Part shown: positions 25,983 through 36,049 of the stretch, one piece after another
How the letters are laid out: each line of letters starts with the position of its first letter
Position numbering within the stretch: the stretch's first letter is position 1
Sequence record: MW883059
DNA length: 64,000 bases
Strand: one strand, 5' to 3'
From: Escherichia phage vB_EcoM_SYGD1
Made by a program: the position numbers and the translations under genes
The notes under the pieces: model-generated
The model's database searches: none
The model's input: the letters and a program-made list of their open reading frames with translations, nothing else
What the model was told of the DNA's origin: nothing

Positions 25983-26707
25983 ATGAAACTAATCTTTTTA
26001 AGTGGTGTAAAGCGCAGTGGAAAAGATACTACTGCGGATTTTATCATGAATAATTATTCTGCAGTTAAATATCAACTTGCTGGTCCTATTAAAGATGCAT
26101 TAGCTTATGCGTGGGGCGTGTTTGCTGCAAACACTGACTATCCTTGCTTAACTCGCAAAGAGTTTGAAGGAATTGACTATGATCGTGAGACTAATTTAAA
26201 TCTGACTAAATCAGAAGTAATCACGATTATGGAACAAGCATTTTGTTATCTTAACGGTAAAAGCCCAATTAGGGGTGTGTGTGTTTTTGAGGACGAAGGA
26301 CAAGAATCAGTTGATTCCGTAGCATGTAACAAGATTATTGACGTTATAAATAATATTGAAGATCAATGGTCAGTCCGTCGTCTGATGCAAGCCCTAGGTA
26401 CGGATTTGATTGTTAATAACTTCGACCGCATGTATTGGGTAAAATTATTTGCTTTAGATTATCTTGATAAATTTAACTCAGGTTATGATTATTATATCGT
26501 TCCTGATACTCGTCAAGATCATGAAATGGATGCGGCTAGGGCGATGGGTGCTACAGTAATTTATGTAGTTCGTCCTGGTCAAAAATCCAATGATACTCAT
26601 ATTACAGAAGCTGGATTGCCAATTCGTGATGGCGATTTAGTAATTACAAACGATGGTTCTCTTGAAGAACTTTTTTCTAAAATTAAAAATACACTAAAGG
26701 TACTATA

Positions 26708-26708: not shown

Positions 26709-27393
<685 letters not shown>

Positions 27394-27405
27394 TTTCACA
27401 AAGTT

Positions 27406-27435
27406 GTTTACACGGGGTTTTAGTTGTGATACTAT
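27406..27435 (+). promoter_or_regulatory. T4-type early promoter (GTTTAC -35, extended -10 TGnTACTAT)
   Basis: gtttac, 18-nt spacer, tgatactat; upstream of first internal-protein gene. Confidence 0.6.
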
Positions 27436-27471
27436 TACCCTATCAAAACAAATGAGTGATTGGAGAATAAA

Positions 27472-27744
27472 ATGAAAACATTTAAAGAATTTATCAATGA
27501 AGCTACTTTTAACGAAAAAGTAAAAATTAGCAAAGCTGTCAAGACTTTGATTGCTGACATCAATTACCTATATGATATTGATTTAACTGACTATGTAACA
27601 GTTGGTAACAAACGTAACTATTTCGTGTTTGACATCTCTGAACTTGACCAGAATCAAATTAACAACATTGAGCGTTTTGCTAATGATAGGGGTCTTCGAC
27701 ACGAGCCTGGTGGCTATAAAAAATACGCAATTTATTTAAAATGA
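27472..27744 (+). CDS. Internal protein with capsid targeting sequence (IPI-like)
   Basis: N-terminus MKTFKEFINEA resembles T4 internal-protein targeting sequence MKTYQEFIAEA with prohead protease site after INE. Confidence 0.65.
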   Translation: MKTFKEFINEATFNEKVKISKAVKTLIADINYLYDIDLTDYVTVGNKRNYFVFDISELDQNQINNIERFANDRGLRHEPGGYKKYAIYLK

Positions 27745-27774
27745 GTTTACTTTTAGATAGGGTAGTGATACTAT
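27745..27774 (+). promoter_or_regulatory. T4-type early promoter
   Basis: gtttac ... tgatactat. Confidence 0.6.
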
Positions 27775-27804
27775 TATCTCATCAAAATTAATTAGGAAAA
27801 TAAA

Positions 27805-28116
27805 ATGAAAACATTTAAAGAATTTATCAATGAAGCGGCTGCTGCACCAAAGACATTCGTTATTAATACTCAAGCGAGTCTTGATGATGAGTACGCGGAG
27901 GCAATTCTGAAGTCACTTGCTAAGAACGGCGTTGAAGTAATTGCTTCGGACTTTAAGAAAGGGGCTTCCGAGATGTTTATTTCTATAACTAAAGGATCTA
28001 AAGCTAAGATTAAATCATCATTCGGAGTTGCTCGTACCGATCAAATCGACAATCATGACTTTAAACAAACTGGTGCTAAACGGCAGAATACGATTGCATC
28101 ACGCGGAATAAAATAG
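27805..28116 (+). CDS. Internal protein with capsid targeting sequence
   Basis: N-terminus MKTFKEFINEA identical to the preceding ORF for 11 aa, body unrelated. Confidence 0.65.
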   Translation: MKTFKEFINEAAAAPKTFVINTQASLDDEYAEAILKSLAKNGVEVIASDFKKGASEMFISITKGSKAKIKSSFGVARTDQIDNHDFKQTGAKRQNTIASRGIK

Positions 28117-28127
28117 TTTATAAAACC

Positions 28128-28157
28128 GTTTACTTTTAGATGGGGTAGTGATACTAT
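28128..28157 (+). promoter_or_regulatory. T4-type early promoter
   Basis: gtttac ... tgatactat. Confidence 0.6.
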
Positions 28158-28185
28158 TACCCTATCAACTACTGAGGAGAATAAA

Positions 28186-28371
28186 ATGAAACGTTGTGAA
28201 TTAATTCGAAATGTTGCTATTGCAATTTCTGCTTCCGCTTTTAGTTTTTCAATGTTTGTTGGATTTATATGCGGATTATTAACTACAGCAGAAAATGTGT
28301 TTTCACTTGTAGTAGCATTTTTAATTGGTTTAATCGCTATCGTTATGGATAAAATTTCTAAAGGTGAATAG
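28186..28371 (+). CDS. Small membrane protein, hypothetical
   Basis: 61 aa with two hydrophobic stretches. Confidence 0.35.
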   Translation: MKRCELIRNVAIAISASAFSFSMFVGFICGLLTTAENVFSLVVAFLIGLIAIVMDKISKGE

Positions 28372-28755: not shown

Positions 28756-29046
28756 ATGATTCTTTATGCGAAAGTATCATCCATTGAAAATGGATATAAA
28801 TATGATCAAGACGCGGCTAAAGCCTTGATTGACGATTATGGCATTTTAACATGTTTTGAAGTTGAAAAGGTTTACATTGACCGTTCATCTTCTCAAGTTA
28901 AATTAGTGAAGGAAGACCGTAAATTTAATACAGTAAATTTTGATTTCTTTATTGAAACAGAAAAAGGTCCTCTTGAATATGATATTTTCAAGAATCCTTT
29001 GGGTCTTGAATGTATTAAATATACTTACATTAATGCAGCGTGGTGA
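28756..29046 (+). CDS. Hypothetical protein
   Basis: 96 aa ORF. Confidence 0.35.
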   Translation: MILYAKVSSIENGYKYDQDAAKALIDDYGILTCFEVEKVYIDRSSSQVKLVKEDRKFNTVNFDFFIETEKGPLEYDIFKNPLGLECIKYTYINAAW

Positions 29047-29564
29047 AAATGAATATTTGTTTAGGTACTACAATTCCGCAGGGCTACGTAATTGATGTCA
29101 CTACCTGGGAAAATGATGGTGACAACTATAAAACCAAAACATTGTTTGGCGTAGAAGAGCATGAAATCTTACAATTCCAATATCTTTTAAAGAAGTTTAA
29201 AAGCAGACATTCTAGTACTAAAGCTGAACGTTATTGTGGTAATGGCTTGTTCAGCGAGCAATCGCTTTTTATTTATGAATACTTGGTTGAAGGACTGTTC
29301 TCAGAACAACTTTATCCAGAATTCATTAAAAAGGTCTTTGACATAGAAATTGACCTTGGTAATAAATCTGAAGAAGATGAAGAACGTGTATTTGACTTAT
29401 TCTTTGTGAATGGTAATAAAGTGCTTGAAGGACTTATTAATATTTTAGGTAATGCTTCTGAGTATTATGATTATGATTTTTTGCGTGTAGTTGAGAGTGT
29501 TAAATACTCTTATATAGAAGAAGAAATTGTTTTGCCGACCGTTAAAATGTTTAATTTGCTTTAA
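29040..29564 (+). CDS. Hypothetical protein
   Basis: 174 aa ORF. Confidence 0.4.
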   Translation: MVKMNICLGTTIPQGYVIDVTTWENDGDNYKTKTLFGVEEHEILQFQYLLKKFKSRHSSTKAERYCGNGLFSEQSLFIYEYLVEGLFSEQLYPEFIKKVFDIEIDLGNKSEEDEERVFDLFFVNGNKVLEGLINILGNASEYYDYDFLRVVESVKYSYIEEEIVLPTVKMFNLL

Positions 29565-29650: not shown

Positions 29651-29723
29651 TGGGAATTAGCCAAGTTGGTAAGGCATAGCACTTTGACTGCTAGATGCAA
29701 AGGTTCGAGTCCTTTATTCCCAG
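29651..29723 (+). tRNA. tRNA-Gln (UUG)
   Basis: Manual fold: acceptor tgggaat/attccca, anticodon loop cttTGac, T-arm ggttcgagtcc. Confidence 0.8.
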
Positions 29724-29724
29724 C

Positions 29725-29811
29725 GCGAGAATGGTCAAATTGGTAAAGGCACAGCACTTAAAATGCTGCGGAATGATTTCCTTGTGGGTTCGAGTCCCAC
29801 TTCTCGTACCA
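29725..29811 (+). tRNA. tRNA-Leu (UAA)
   Basis: Manual fold: long variable arm, anticodon loop ctTAAaa, T-arm ggttcgagtcc, encoded CCA. Confidence 0.8.
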
Positions 29812-29817
29812 AAGTTT

Positions 29818-29889
<72 letters not shown>

Positions 29890-29901
29890 AAATTTAATTT
29901 A

Positions 29902-29975
29902 CTCCGTGTAGCTCAGTTTGGTAGAGCGTCTGCTTTGGGAGCAGAATGTCACAGGTTCAAATCCTGCCGCGGAGA
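29902..29975 (+). tRNA. tRNA-Pro (UGG)
   Basis: Manual fold: anticodon loop ttTGGga, T-arm ggttcaaatcc. Confidence 0.8.
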
Positions 29976-29977
29976 CT

Positions 29978-30064
29978 GGAGGCGTGGCAGAGTGGTTTAA
30001 TGCACCGGTCTTGAAAACCGGCAGTCGCTCCGGTGACTCATAGGTTCAAATCCTATCGCCTCCG
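29978..30064 (+). tRNA. tRNA-Ser (UGA)
   Basis: Manual fold: long variable arm, anticodon loop ctTGAaa, acceptor ggaggcg/cgcctcc. Confidence 0.8.
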
Positions 30065-30071
30065 TAATTTC

Positions 30072-30144
30072 GCTGATTTAGCTCAGTAGGTAGAGCACCT
30101 CACTTGTAATGAGGATGTCGGCGGTTCGATTCCGTCAATCAGCA
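30072..30144 (+). tRNA. tRNA-Thr (UGU)
   Basis: Manual fold: anticodon loop ctTGTaa, acceptor gctgatt/aatcagc. Confidence 0.8.
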
Positions 30145-30150
30145 TATCAA

Positions 30151-30222
30151 GGCCCTGTAGCTGGAAGGTTCAAGCAAGCGACTCATAATCGCCAGATGGT
30201 GGTTCAATTCCACCCAGGGCCA
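30151..30222 (+). tRNA. tRNA-Ile (CAU, lysidine type) or Met
   Basis: Manual fold: acceptor ggccctg/cagggcc, anticodon loop ctCATaa; T4 carries a CAU tRNA read as Ile. Confidence 0.7.
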
Positions 30223-30263
30223 TATTTTGGGAACATAAATACTCTTAGAAATAGGAGATATTT

Positions 30264-30929
30264 ATGTTCCATTACACTTATAAAATAACAAATAAAATTA
30301 ATAATAAAATCTATATAGGCGCTCATTCTACCGAAAATTTAGATGATGGATATATGGGTTCTGGTAAATTATTAAAAAGAGCCCAAGACAAGTATGGTAT
30401 AGAAAATTTCTCTAAAGAAATATTAGAGTTCTTTGACGATAAAACCTCTATGTTTGAGTCAGAAAAGAATATTGTGACTGAAGAGTTTTTAAAGCGCCCT
30501 GATGTTTATAATTTGAAATTAGGTGGTGAAGGTGGTTGGGACCATTTAAACACTAAAGAATATTTGGATAAAAAGAAAGAAGCTTCCTTAAAAGGGGCTG
30601 CTGCTTTTAAAACCAGATTTGAGAACGACCCAGACCTTAAAGAAAAATATCGTAAAATGGGTTCAGAAAGGTTTAAACAGCTTTGGGATAATCCTAAGTA
30701 TAGAGAGAAATTTTTAAATATTAAATCTTTATTGGGTAAGACCCATACTCCTGAAACTATTAATAAAATGAAAGAATCTCACGCCAGAAATAAACACCAA
30801 CAGGGCGAAAAGAATTCCCAATTTGGTATGATGTGGATTCATTCATTAGATGAAAAAGTTTCTAAACGTATTAAGAAAACTGACCCAATTCCAGAAGGAT
30901 GGTTTAAAGGTCGAAAAATGAAATTTTAA
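30264..30929 (+). CDS. segB: GIY-YIG homing endonuclease inside the tRNA cluster (SegB-like)
   Basis: 221 aa; N-terminal YTYKITNKINNKIYIGAHS...YMGSG; sits between tRNA-Ile and tRNA-Arg as segB does in T4. Confidence 0.75.
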   Translation: MFHYTYKITNKINNKIYIGAHSTENLDDGYMGSGKLLKRAQDKYGIENFSKEILEFFDDKTSMFESEKNIVTEEFLKRPDVYNLKLGGEGGWDHLNTKEYLDKKKEASLKGAAAFKTRFENDPDLKEKYRKMGSERFKQLWDNPKYREKFLNIKSLLGKTHTPETINKMKESHARNKHQQGEKNSQFGMMWIHSLDEKVSKRIKKTDPIPEGWFKGRKMKF

Positions 30930-30932
30930 TTA

Positions 30933-31009
<77 letters not shown>

Positions 31010-31330
31010 GACAAGAAACCGGGTCGCTACCGGTAAGTCGTCGGACTGATGTTCCCTGGGTAAGGAATTGCGTTAATAAATCTTTATGATTTGTTGATGC
31101 CCTCTTACACCACAGCAGAAACGGCGCACCGAATTATCGATTCGAGGAAATATCTTTGCCGTAAGCCGAGTAGCGTTTTTGACGGAACGTTCGGATATGG
31201 TCGAGATATGGCCTTTTAAAAATATTAAGTAGCGTCAACTGCTTAATAACCGGGTTCGAATCCCGGCGTTTCGTACAAACACTTGCCTTAGCAGGTGGAA
31301 CCCCGACAAGGTTGCCGCAAGGCTTTAGCC
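31010..31330 (+). ncRNA. Putative small stable RNAs (T4 species 1/2, rnaC/rnaD-like)
   Basis: Non-coding stretch after tRNA-Arg; tRNA-like T-arm ccgggttcgaatcccgg at 31249-31265; ends at rho-independent terminator; boundaries uncertain. Confidence 0.35.
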
Positions 31331-31355
31331 CCGACCGAAAGGTTGGGGCTTTTTG
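31327..31355 (+). terminator. Rho-independent terminator
   Basis: agccccgaccgaaaggttggggc followed by ttttt; near-identical copy at 31870-31898. Confidence 0.7.
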
Positions 31356-31356
31356 G

Positions 31357-31364
31357 TATAAATA
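31357..31364 (+). promoter_or_regulatory. Late promoter (TATAAATA)
   Basis: TATAAATA about 40 nt upstream of ORF 31404. Confidence 0.5.
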
Positions 31365-31403
31365 TAGTAGTATATTAAATCACGAATTAAAACAGGAAAT
31401 AAG

Positions 31404-31862
31404 ATGAAATCATATGCTCAATTTTTAAATGAAGCATCCGCTTCAGATGTTCGCGCTGTAGCAACTGCTGCTATTAAAGCTGGTAAATATTCTTATAAAG
31501 ATGCTTCTGACGAATCTCGGTACAAGTTCTACGACGATATGAGAGCTGAAGGCTTTGTGGGTAACTATGTTACCACCGCCTGGAAAAGCCTGGTTGCTAC
31601 TGGTGCGGCTTTCGAAAAACCTTCTGGTAAACCTGCTCCTAAGGCTGACCCTAAAGCAGCACAAGAAAAAAATATTGCTAAAGGAATTATTTCTAGGTAT
31701 GAAGCAATTCTTAAAGAACTTTTGGTAATTAAGACCGAAGGCCAGAAACTTGCGCGAGCTCATAGTTTCAAAGATAACCCACATGCTCATGACCTAGAGT
31801 ATGTTGAAGATCTCCAAAAAATCATCAAAGACCGCATTTGGTCTGCTAAACAAATTAAATAA
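31404..31862 (+). CDS. Internal protein-like, with capsid targeting sequence
   Basis: N-terminus MKSYAQFLNEA matches targeting-sequence pattern; 152 aa. Confidence 0.55.
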   Translation: MKSYAQFLNEASASDVRAVATAAIKAGKYSYKDASDESRYKFYDDMRAEGFVGNYVTTAWKSLVATGAAFEKPSGKPAPKADPKAAQEKNIAKGIISRYEAILKELLVIKTEGQKLARAHSFKDNPHAHDLEYVEDLQKIIKDRIWSAKQIK

Positions 31863-31869
31863 CATTCTT

Positions 31870-31898
31870 AGCCCCAGCCGAAAGGTTGGGGCTTTTGG
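31870..31898 (+). terminator. Rho-independent terminator (repeat of 31327 element)
   Basis: agccccagccgaaaggttggggc + tttt. Confidence 0.65.
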
Positions 31899-35041: not shown

Positions 35042-35572
<531 letters not shown>

Positions 35573-35632: not shown

Positions 35633-36049
35633 ATGACTCGTATTAATTTGACTTTAGTATCTGAACTTGCTGATCAACATTTAATCGCAGAATACCGTGA
35701 ACTGCCGCGTGTTTTTGGTATAGTTCGTAAACATGTTGCAAATGGTAAGCGGGTTAAAGATTTTAAAATATCTTCCGAGTTTATTTTAGGTTCTGGTCAT
35801 GTCACGTTCTTTTACGATAAGTTAGAATTTTTGCGAAAGCGTCAATCAGACATTATAACGGAATGCTTAAAACGCGGATTCAGTATAAAAGATACTGAAG
35901 TTCCTGACATCAGTGATATTCCAGTAGAATGGAAAAATGATTATAATCCATGCAAATCAGCTATTAGGTTGAGTCAACAACGACTCGATGAAAAAATTTT
36001 AATGAAGCCACACTGGTACAAGTATTACGGCAAAAATATTTACATTTAA
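35633..36049 (+). CDS. denV: Endonuclease V (pyrimidine dimer DNA glycosylase)
   Basis: 138 aa; N-terminal [17 protein letters not shown] as in T4 DenV. Confidence 0.9.

Follow-up and report, generated by a model that had tools for sequence, protein, structure and literature searches.

A 64,000-nucleotide (nt) stretch of the genome of Escherichia phage vB_EcoM_SYGD1 (MW883059), referred to here as the window, carries two adjacent open reading frames (ORFs) on the plus strand, at positions 27472 to 27744 and 27805 to 28116 (Table 1). Both begin with MKTFKEFINEA, and the span that had drawn attention to them, 27406 to 28116, opens at the −35 box of the upstream gene's promoter and closes with the stop codon of the downstream gene. 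Based on sequence comparisons, the two genes encode Ip9 and Ip7, internal head proteins that have already been named in T4-like phages. They are placed between 57B and trna.4, exactly at the site occupied by ipI in T4 and by ipV/ipVI in PST. The window derives from a Tequatrovirus; its locus is 98.5% identical to that of Escherichia phage HMD-9 and is matched by 819 T4-like records. The products of ip9, ip7, and a third gene with a related N terminus farther downstream (SYGD1_189, SYGD1_190, and SYGD1_196 of vB_EcoM_SYGD1) are annotated as hypothetical in that record.

A mechanical ORF list placed the start of ip9 at a TTG codon (27460). We instead take the ATG at 27472 as the true start, because it is preceded by a GGAG Shine-Dalgarno sequence (27462 to 27465) and because all orthologues begin with MKT. 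From the Shine-Dalgarno sequence through codon 11, ip9 and ip7 share 42 nt of DNA with a single mismatch. A relaxed pattern for the N-terminal tag matched exactly three ORFs in the 64 kb, compared with 0.03 in 200 shuffles; the shared N terminus is genuine and not an effect of chance. Beyond residue 11, BLASTP against a six-sequence database detected no similarity of Ip9 and Ip7 to each other or to the T4 proteins IPI, IPII, and IPIII (all E values >0.07). The original prediction, which described an identical N terminus on two adjacent ORFs with unrelated bodies and a third ORF at 31404 opening with MKSYAQFLNEA (the third match of the relaxed pattern), was thus correct on each of these points. 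Both bodies are under purifying selection, with ratios of nonsynonymous to synonymous polymorphism (pN/pS) of 0.13 to 0.29 for Ip9 and 0.0 to 0.36 for Ip7, taken where synonymous divergence is near saturation. These low values (about 0.1 to 0.36) indicate that ip9 and ip7 are real, functional genes.

Ip9 matched phrog_7673 (“internal head protein”; E = 1.6e-53) and is 88% identical over its full length to Ip9 of RB15 (UniProt Q38376), which shares its length (90 amino acids [aa]), its locus, and its PHROG family and carries the tag MKTYQEFISEA, which differs from that of the window protein at three positions. The ip9 annotation is also carried by relatives in VR20, VR25, and IME08. Ip7 matched phrog_2667 (“internal head protein”; E = 8e-42); over the mature body, it shares 100% identity with RB32 Ip7 (DQ904452), and its overall identity to the “Ip7 protein” of WG01 and AS6 is 88 to 91% (91% for AS6). 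The Ip7 proteins of RB32, WG01, AS6, and MX01 have AAPK or TAPK after the cleavage site, where the window protein has AAAAPK and thus one extra Ala. The names Ip9 and Ip7 date from the 1990s and are used in several GenBank records. We found the Ip9 body in 186 phage records, the Ip7 body in 283, and the whole arrangement as in the window in ∼44; in some other phages, ip7 instead stands alone, precedes ip9, or overlaps the stop codon of 57B without a promoter of its own.

Two observations on Ip7 relatives concern individual entries. The OLB35 “ip7 protein” (P0061, 77 aa) is an in-frame chimera that joins a central part of Ip7 to the C-terminal 32 residues of Ip9 and lacks the tag; it looks like the product of a deletion between tandem ip7 and ip9 genes. 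Furthermore, the 90%-identity cluster containing Ip7 (P0017 and P0019) has a 134-aa trna.3-like protein as its representative, and we took the presence of such proteins in this cluster to be a clustering artefact.

The surroundings of the two genes support their placement. The order in the window (dNMP kinase, 57A, 57B, ip9, ip7, trna.4, trna.3, trna.2, the tRNA cluster with segB, e.8 through e, and denV) is the T4 order read from the opposite strand, and the order 57B-ip-ip-trna.4-trna.3-trna.2-tRNAs is common to T4, HMD-9, and PST. Comparison with the ip loci of other T-even phages, the check that accompanied the original prediction, therefore places ip9 and ip7 at the ipI locus as orthologues of the named Ip9 and Ip7.

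The function of the shared N terminus can be read against experimental work on T4. There, the first 10 residues of IPIII suffice to load proteins, including foreign ones, into the prohead core and heads; targeting depends above all on residues 4 and 7, and processing on residues 8 and 10, with Asp at position 10 blocking it; and the gp21 protease cuts after the Glu of an L/I-X-E motif (PMC9026906). All functionally mapped residues of this capsid targeting sequence are present in Ip9 and Ip7 (F4, F7, I8, and E10, followed by Ala), with F4 being the natural residue of T4 IPI. The third tagged ORF has Y4, F7, L8, and E10, again followed by Ala. The gp21 motif reads I-N-E↓A in Ip9 and Ip7 and L-N-E↓A in the third protein (arrow, cleavage site). 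Thus, as proposed at the outset, the N terminus matches the T4 targeting sequence that is removed by the prohead protease.

To place the tag in a wider set, we took from viral contigs 36 related loci that surround 57B and catalogued 80 tagged ORFs in 24 body families. The consensus of 71 distinct tagged proteins from 40 loci is M-K-[TS]-[YF]-x-[EQD]-F-[ILMV]-x-E-[AST], which the window proteins fit. M1, K2, F7, and E10 are invariant across the 71 proteins even though the leader DNA differs by 20 to 40% between genes, which argues that selection acts on the peptide and not just that the DNA is homologous. In AlphaFold models, the tag forms a short helix followed by a low-confidence linker (residues 8 to 15 in Ip9 and 8 to 12 in Ip7), so the cut site would be exposed. 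Cleavage is predicted to yield an Ip9* of 80 aa and 9.4 kDa with an isoelectric point (pI) of 8.2 (cut after 27501; N terminus ATFNEK...) and an Ip7* of 93 aa, 9.9 kDa, and pI 9.65 (N terminus AAAAPK...). A T4-type internal protein would be expected in virions in its processed form at some hundreds of copies; a T4 head contains about 1000 internal protein molecules. From the match to the experimentally mapped signal, we infer that Ip9 and Ip7 are themselves packaged, cleaved, and injected.

The early-promoter consensus of T4 and PST, TTTACW-N17-TAYWAT (PMC4122927), matched 13 sites in the window, all on the plus strand, versus 0.43 expected. We used it in place of a generic sigma-70 scan, which did not discriminate (21 sites found versus 18.3 expected). 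One match lies immediately upstream of each ip gene, as had been claimed in assigning each its own early promoter, and a third copy precedes the trna.4-like gene (Table 1). Spacing is tight, with 13 nt between the stop codon of 57B and the first TTTACA box and one base between the stop codon of ip9 and the next TTTACT box. A terminator scan found none between 57B and trna.4 (27393 to 28186). In many relatives (loci L005, L010, L014, L017, L020, L021, L023, L025, L026, L028-L031, and L036; position 6453), the ATG of the first tagged gene overlaps the stop codon of 57B (ATGA), and the gene has no promoter of its own. The separate early promoter is therefore a feature of the lineage represented by the window and not of the locus generally.

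This organization resembles the promoter-early stem-loop (PeSL) cassettes described in T4-like phages (Arbiol 2010; Comeau 2014), in which small accessory genes of a hyperplastic region are likewise bracketed by near-identical modules of early promoter and Shine-Dalgarno sequence, and which their own authors linked to the ip locus (PMC4122927). At 27407, 27746, and 28129, an early promoter precedes a Shine-Dalgarno sequence and then a start codon, as in PeSL cassettes. PeSL cassettes differ in having a terminator stem-loop before the promoter, which is missing from the ip9 and ip7 promoters, and the conserved recombination substrate of ip9 and ip7, unlike that of PeSL cassettes, reaches into the coding tag.

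The leaders of neighbouring ip genes are 100% identical in the window, in HMD-9, in 236Ecol005PP, and in T4 ipII/ipIII, and only 77% identical at another locus with the same Ip9-Ip7 order (L027). Ip9 orthologues elsewhere mostly begin with MKTYQEFI[SAT]E, and many Ip7 orthologues begin with MKTFKEFINE. At the DNA level, ip9 and the adjacent ip7 carry the same tag, a sign that leaders were exchanged recently; the most economical reading of these sequences is that ip9 acquired the leader of its neighbour. Across loci, leader identity was 0.81 for neighbours versus 0.77 for random pairs (permutation P of about 0.004, with pairs that are not independent). Homogenization of leaders within a genome is thus real but weak as a general rule, and exact identity is lineage specific. 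The pattern in the window fits a model of recombination in the leader credited to Repoila 1994 (PMC4122927), in which recombination in the conserved leader would shuffle cassettes between phages and leave an identical tag and ribosome-binding site on unrelated bodies.

Such recombination could also account for the shared N terminus if Ip9 and Ip7 were ordinary early cytoplasmic proteins that are never packaged, the tag being a by-product of exchange between tandem promoter-leader cassettes. The early promoters on both genes and the lack of a late box of their own would suit this explanation, as would the existence of tag-less Ip9 homologues (see below) and the finding that tag-less, plasmid-expressed IPIII acts from the cytoplasm (PMC9391042). 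We nevertheless consider it highly improbable, given that the invariance of M1, K2, F7, and E10 in 71 proteins against divergent leader DNA indicates selection on the peptide, that the 10 residues of IPIII are enough to bring foreign proteins into heads (PMC9026906), and that the window tag and the IPIII tag differ at no more than three positions, namely, 4 (where T4 IPI also has F), 5, and 9.

We assign a probability of roughly 0.8 to the reading in which ip9 and ip7 belong to the polymorphic internal head protein genes of the ipI locus, with products that are tagged, packaged, cleaved, injected, and active in blocking nucleases. Each gene would be transcribed from its own T4-type early promoter, as the consensus matches suggest, and would probably also be read from upstream late transcripts late in infection. 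By extension from the mapped IPIII tag, MKTFKEFINE would attach the precursor to the prohead scaffolding core. The gp21 protease would then cut I-N-E↓A after Glu10, and the basic Ip9* (∼9.4 kDa) and Ip7* (∼9.9 kDa) would stay with the DNA in the head. As with T4 IPI to IPIII, both would be ejected into the cell along with the DNA, where each, by analogy with T4 Ip1 to Ip3, would most likely block a single, specific host nuclease directed at modified phage DNA as it enters. Because internal proteins arrive in the cytoplasm before any other phage protein, they decide the survival of incoming DNA against first-response nucleases. They therefore bear on host range and on which T4-like phages are selected for therapy; vB_EcoM_SYGD1 has been used in a mastitis cocktail.

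The nuclease-blocking step draws on what is known for T4. IPI* blocks the GmrS/GmrD nuclease, which cuts DNA containing glucosyl-hydroxymethylcytosine (glucosyl-hmC) (PMC3012670), and a distinct GmrSD type IV nuclease is blocked by each of Ip1, Ip2, and Ip3, as shown in 2025 for Ip2 and Ip3, with strict specificity (PMC12373910). Internal proteins are currently regarded in the literature as injected effectors against host defence (PMC3012670; PMC12373910), and the suggestion in the original prediction agrees with this view. All elements of that earlier interpretation are supported, and the observation is confirmed but ordinary. Conceptually, there is nothing new for Ip9 and Ip7, which are named, catalogued, and already screened.

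T4 IPI is like Ip9 and Ip7 in its locus between 57B and trna.4, its first seven residues (MKTFKEF), its similar size and charge, and, as predicted for Ip9 and Ip7, the removal of a propeptide by gp21 after L/I-X-E; it differs in having a 19-residue propeptide, as opposed to a 10-residue tag, and a body unrelated in sequence. T4 IPII and IPIII, the inhibitors of GmrSD-ECOR21 and GmrSD-ECOR17, respectively, have a 10-residue tag (MKTYQEFIAE↓A) in the same register as that of Ip9 and Ip7 and, like the pair in the window, combine a DNA-identical leader with unrelated bodies. Their bodies are unrelated to those of Ip9 and Ip7, however, and their genes lie at a different locus, between e and denV, which is empty in the window.

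Several points weigh against the interpretation of Ip9 and Ip7 as packaged nuclease inhibitors. BLASTP found no sequence likeness between them and IPI*, Ip2, or Ip3, and IPI* was absent from the top 50 matches of the fold search on solved structures. The proven GmrSD inhibitors themselves fall into separate PHROG families and are unrelated to one another, and sequence or fold likeness therefore does not define this class of inhibitors. In the published screen, for which representatives of 15 GmrSD groups were synthesized and in which five new systems were active against T-even phages, Ip4 to Ip10 gave no reproducible inhibition of the newly tested GmrSD systems, and an apparent interaction between ip7 and CLS_011 was not reproduced (PMC12373910). 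A literature search returned no virion proteomics or injection data for Ip9, Ip7, or vB_EcoM_SYGD1, and a Yersinia phage paper contained no proteome data. No late-promoter box was found directly upstream of ip9 or ip7, the nearest upstream plus-strand TATAAATA being at 26345, inside gene 1; a late supply of the two proteins for head assembly would thus come from read-through. Finally, the genes for gp21 and the scaffold lie outside the window. The closest relative, HMD-9, encodes a gp21 that is 99% identical to that of T4 and has annotated gp22, gp67, and gp68, from which we infer that a gp21 protease and a gp22-type scaffold are encoded in the genome of vB_EcoM_SYGD1 as well.

Predicted structures were examined for clues to the targets. 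The AlphaFold models of Ip9 and Ip7 are based on shallow alignments and are of moderate quality (mean predicted local distance difference test score [pLDDT], 75.7 and 73.3, respectively). Ip9 is modelled as a small alpha/beta protein with a helix (residues 21 to 34), two strands, a second helix (60 to 72), and two further strands, and Ip7 is modelled with a beta-alpha-beta-beta-alpha-beta core (residues 16 to 81). A Foldseek search of the Ip9 model against the PDB gave nothing significant (best E value, 0.04). For Ip7, ACT/ferredoxin-like matches in the PDB (E values of about 3e-3 and template modelling scores of about 0.5) are generic and were set aside as evidence of function. Against viral models, Ip7 retrieved only Ip7 entries, namely, MX01 (E = 4e-17) and, as a partial match, the OLB35 chimera, with no Ip9 or other internal protein. 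When profiles of Ip9 and Ip7 were searched against PDB sequences, the matches did not exceed chance level, and Pfam, NCBIfam, and PADLOC scans of the three tagged proteins gave no match. As modelled, the folds provide no clue to the target of either protein.

The C-terminal tail of Ip7, HDFKQTGAKRQNTIASRGIK (residues 84 to 103), is basic and predicted to be disordered (pLDDT below 50) and yet is nearly invariant across orthologues of 67 to 95% overall identity, which suggests a binding motif. This tail and the basic character of both mature forms (pI 8.2 and 9.65) could instead indicate that Ip9 and Ip7 are packaged mainly as structural or charge-neutralizing partners of DNA or as helpers in head assembly, as has been suggested for IPIII, and are not inhibitors of defence. 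T4 internal proteins bind DNA at low salt, IPIII mutants have head-assembly defects (PMC9026906), and the GmrSD screen yielded no target. However, a generic polycation would not need at least 24 unrelated, individually conserved folds that are swapped among close relatives, and each of the T4 trio of internal proteins proved to have a specific nuclease target (PMC12373910). Moreover, the Ip9 body is kept in phages that lack the tag and hence cannot be a head component there. We therefore regard a mainly structural role as improbable.

These tag-less relatives were found with tblastn and an exhaustive HMMER search for Ip9-like sequences outside the T4-like phages. The Guernseyvirinae phage CR01 (L094:2507-2722) has a 72-aa ORF that is 49% identical to Ip9, and the Seuratvirus KS_A3 (L095:2492-2713) has a 74-aa ORF that is 47% identical, both without the tag. 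In Kuttervirus allotria (L097:7794-10688), the C-terminal 60 to 70 residues of a 964-aa protein match phrog_7673 (E = 2.9e-8); the remainder of that protein corresponds to phrog_3867, whose function is unassigned, and its gene adjoins that of a putative structural protein. Several further tag-less representatives of Ip9-like sequences stand beside tagged ones. Judged by these matches, the Ip9 body appears to be a portable domain and not an invention of the T4 lineage, with the tag as an addition made in that lineage.

The same relatives bear on the target. DNA of Guernseyvirinae, Seuratvirus, and Kuttervirus phages is not known to contain glucosyl-hmC. The occurrence of the Ip9 body in phages with neither the tag nor this modification is a further point against the nuclease-blocking interpretation in its narrow form, as the target need not be an enzyme specific for glucosyl-hmC. 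These occurrences suggest a target of Ip9 that is common to the hosts of phages with different DNA chemistries, and they provide a wider host range in which to seek it. Ip9 and Ip7 could accordingly be injected effectors against something other than GmrSD, either another first-response defence or a host function needed for takeover. The negative screen of Ip4 to Ip10 against active GmrSD groups is consistent with this idea, as is the neighbouring 57B, which encodes Acb1, an inhibitor of the cyclic oligonucleotide-based antiphage signaling system (CBASS); the locus is therefore not devoted to one kind of defence. Set against this, the GmrSD family is very diverse and the tests covered only eight active systems, and the internal proteins with known targets all act on GmrSD enzymes. 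GmrSD relatives such as BrxU are reported to act on several modified DNAs (PMC13390438), and a type IV target thus remains compatible with tag-less Ip9. On balance, we consider a non-GmrSD target unlikely, if a more serious contender than either of the alternatives above, and prefer the interpretation of Ip9 and Ip7 as injected nuclease inhibitors.

Table 1. Coordinates of genes and regulatory features around the tagged genes in the window
Feature	Position	Strand	Description
Gene 57B / Acb1	26938-27393	+	Anti-CBASS phosphodiesterase (Pfam Acb1, E = 2.6e-60); placed as 57B is in T4; left border of the ipI locus, conserved
ip9 early promoter	27407-27435	+	−35 TTTACA, 17-nt spacer, TG-extended −10 TACTAT
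ip9 ORF	27472-27744	+	90 aa, Ip9 precursor; tag codons 1-10 at 27472-27501
ip7 early promoter	27746-27774	+	Consensus match; begins one base past the ip9 stop codon
ip7 ORF	27805-28116	+	103 aa, Ip7 precursor; tag codons 1-10 at 27805-27834
Early promoter of trna.4-like gene (third copy)	28129-28157	+	Consensus match; shares 90% identity with the ip7 promoter across 41 nt
trna.4-like gene	28186-28371	+	phrog_1692; right border of the locus
Terminator, left copy of 29-nt direct repeat	31325-31353	+	Intrinsic terminator ending an rnaC-like RNA
TATAAATA box	31357-31364	+	Presumed T4 late-promoter box; ends 39 nt before the ATG that starts the third tagged ORF
Third tagged ORF	31404-31862	+	152 aa, MKSYAQFLNE↓A, phrog_2280; predicted unannotated internal protein
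Terminator, right copy of 29-nt direct repeat	31868-31896	+	Downstream of the third tagged gene

The third tagged gene lies between rnaC and e.8, and the predicted mature form of its product has 142 aa, a mass of 15.7 kDa, and a pI of 9.4 (N terminus ASASDVR...). It is flanked by the two copies of a 29-nt direct repeat that contains a terminator (Table 1). T4 and PST have a single copy and no gene at this site, so the segment from 31354 to 31896 (543 bp) behaves as a cassette. The TATAAATA box ahead of the gene, which we take from established T4 knowledge to be a late promoter, is present upstream as an exact match in 9 of 11 orthologous loci. The phrog_2280 family, a PHROG without an assigned function, is represented in 511 phage records; in all of the 40 rows that we sampled over the whole ranking, its members were annotated as hypothetical, not at all, or (in fPS-65) as “Phage protein.” No named internal-protein relative was found for the third ORF, and the internal proteins of T4 belong to different PHROGs, whose annotation is that of internal virion proteins.

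Some phages have two tandem members at this third site or a 205-aa variant with a DNA-identical leader. An initial view of the three body types there as unrelated was rejected, as all belong to phrog_2280. We also rejected the site as a substitute for the ipII/ipIII locus, given that contigs such as IMGVR_UViG_2974497520 have tagged genes at each of the three sites. Published accounts recognize two ip loci (PMC12373910). In the records that we examined, the site between rnaC and e.8 carried no ip-locus annotation, and we found no description of it in a literature search that did not extend to Repoila 1994 or Comeau 2007. Based on the conserved late promoter, the flanking duplication of the 29-nt terminator, and the exchange of divergent bodies behind a DNA-identical leader, the phrog_2280 family may represent a third polymorphic internal-protein locus. 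As a modest lead, this flags a common, unannotated tagged family. It can be joined with the distribution of Ip9 in a scenario in which phrog_2280 marks a third ip locus and the Ip9 domain, once a cytoplasmic counter-defence protein, became an injected one by the addition of a 10-residue tag; we offer this combination tentatively, as somewhat less than an even prospect.

Elsewhere in the window, e (35078 to 35572) is followed directly by denV (35633 to 36049), and the ipII/ipIII site is thus empty. The same site holds one to four tagged genes in T4 and in all 22 related loci examined. With three tagged proteins in the window, vB_EcoM_SYGD1 has an unusually small set. On the other side of the ip genes, 57B is still labelled “RNA ligase” in many records. 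A 174-aa ORF (29040 to 29564; phrog_2290, function unassigned) lies between trna.2 and tRNA-Gln and is absent there in T4, HMD-9, 236Ecol005PP, and PST. The tRNA cluster (29651 to 31009) comprises eight tRNA genes and is split, as in T4, by a gene for a segB-like GIY-YIG homing endonuclease (30264 to 30929); that of HMD-9 has ten tRNAs, with Tyr and Asn added, and lacks segB. The tRNA-Met (CAT) called by ARAGORN in the window occupies the position of the annotated tRNA-Ile of T4.

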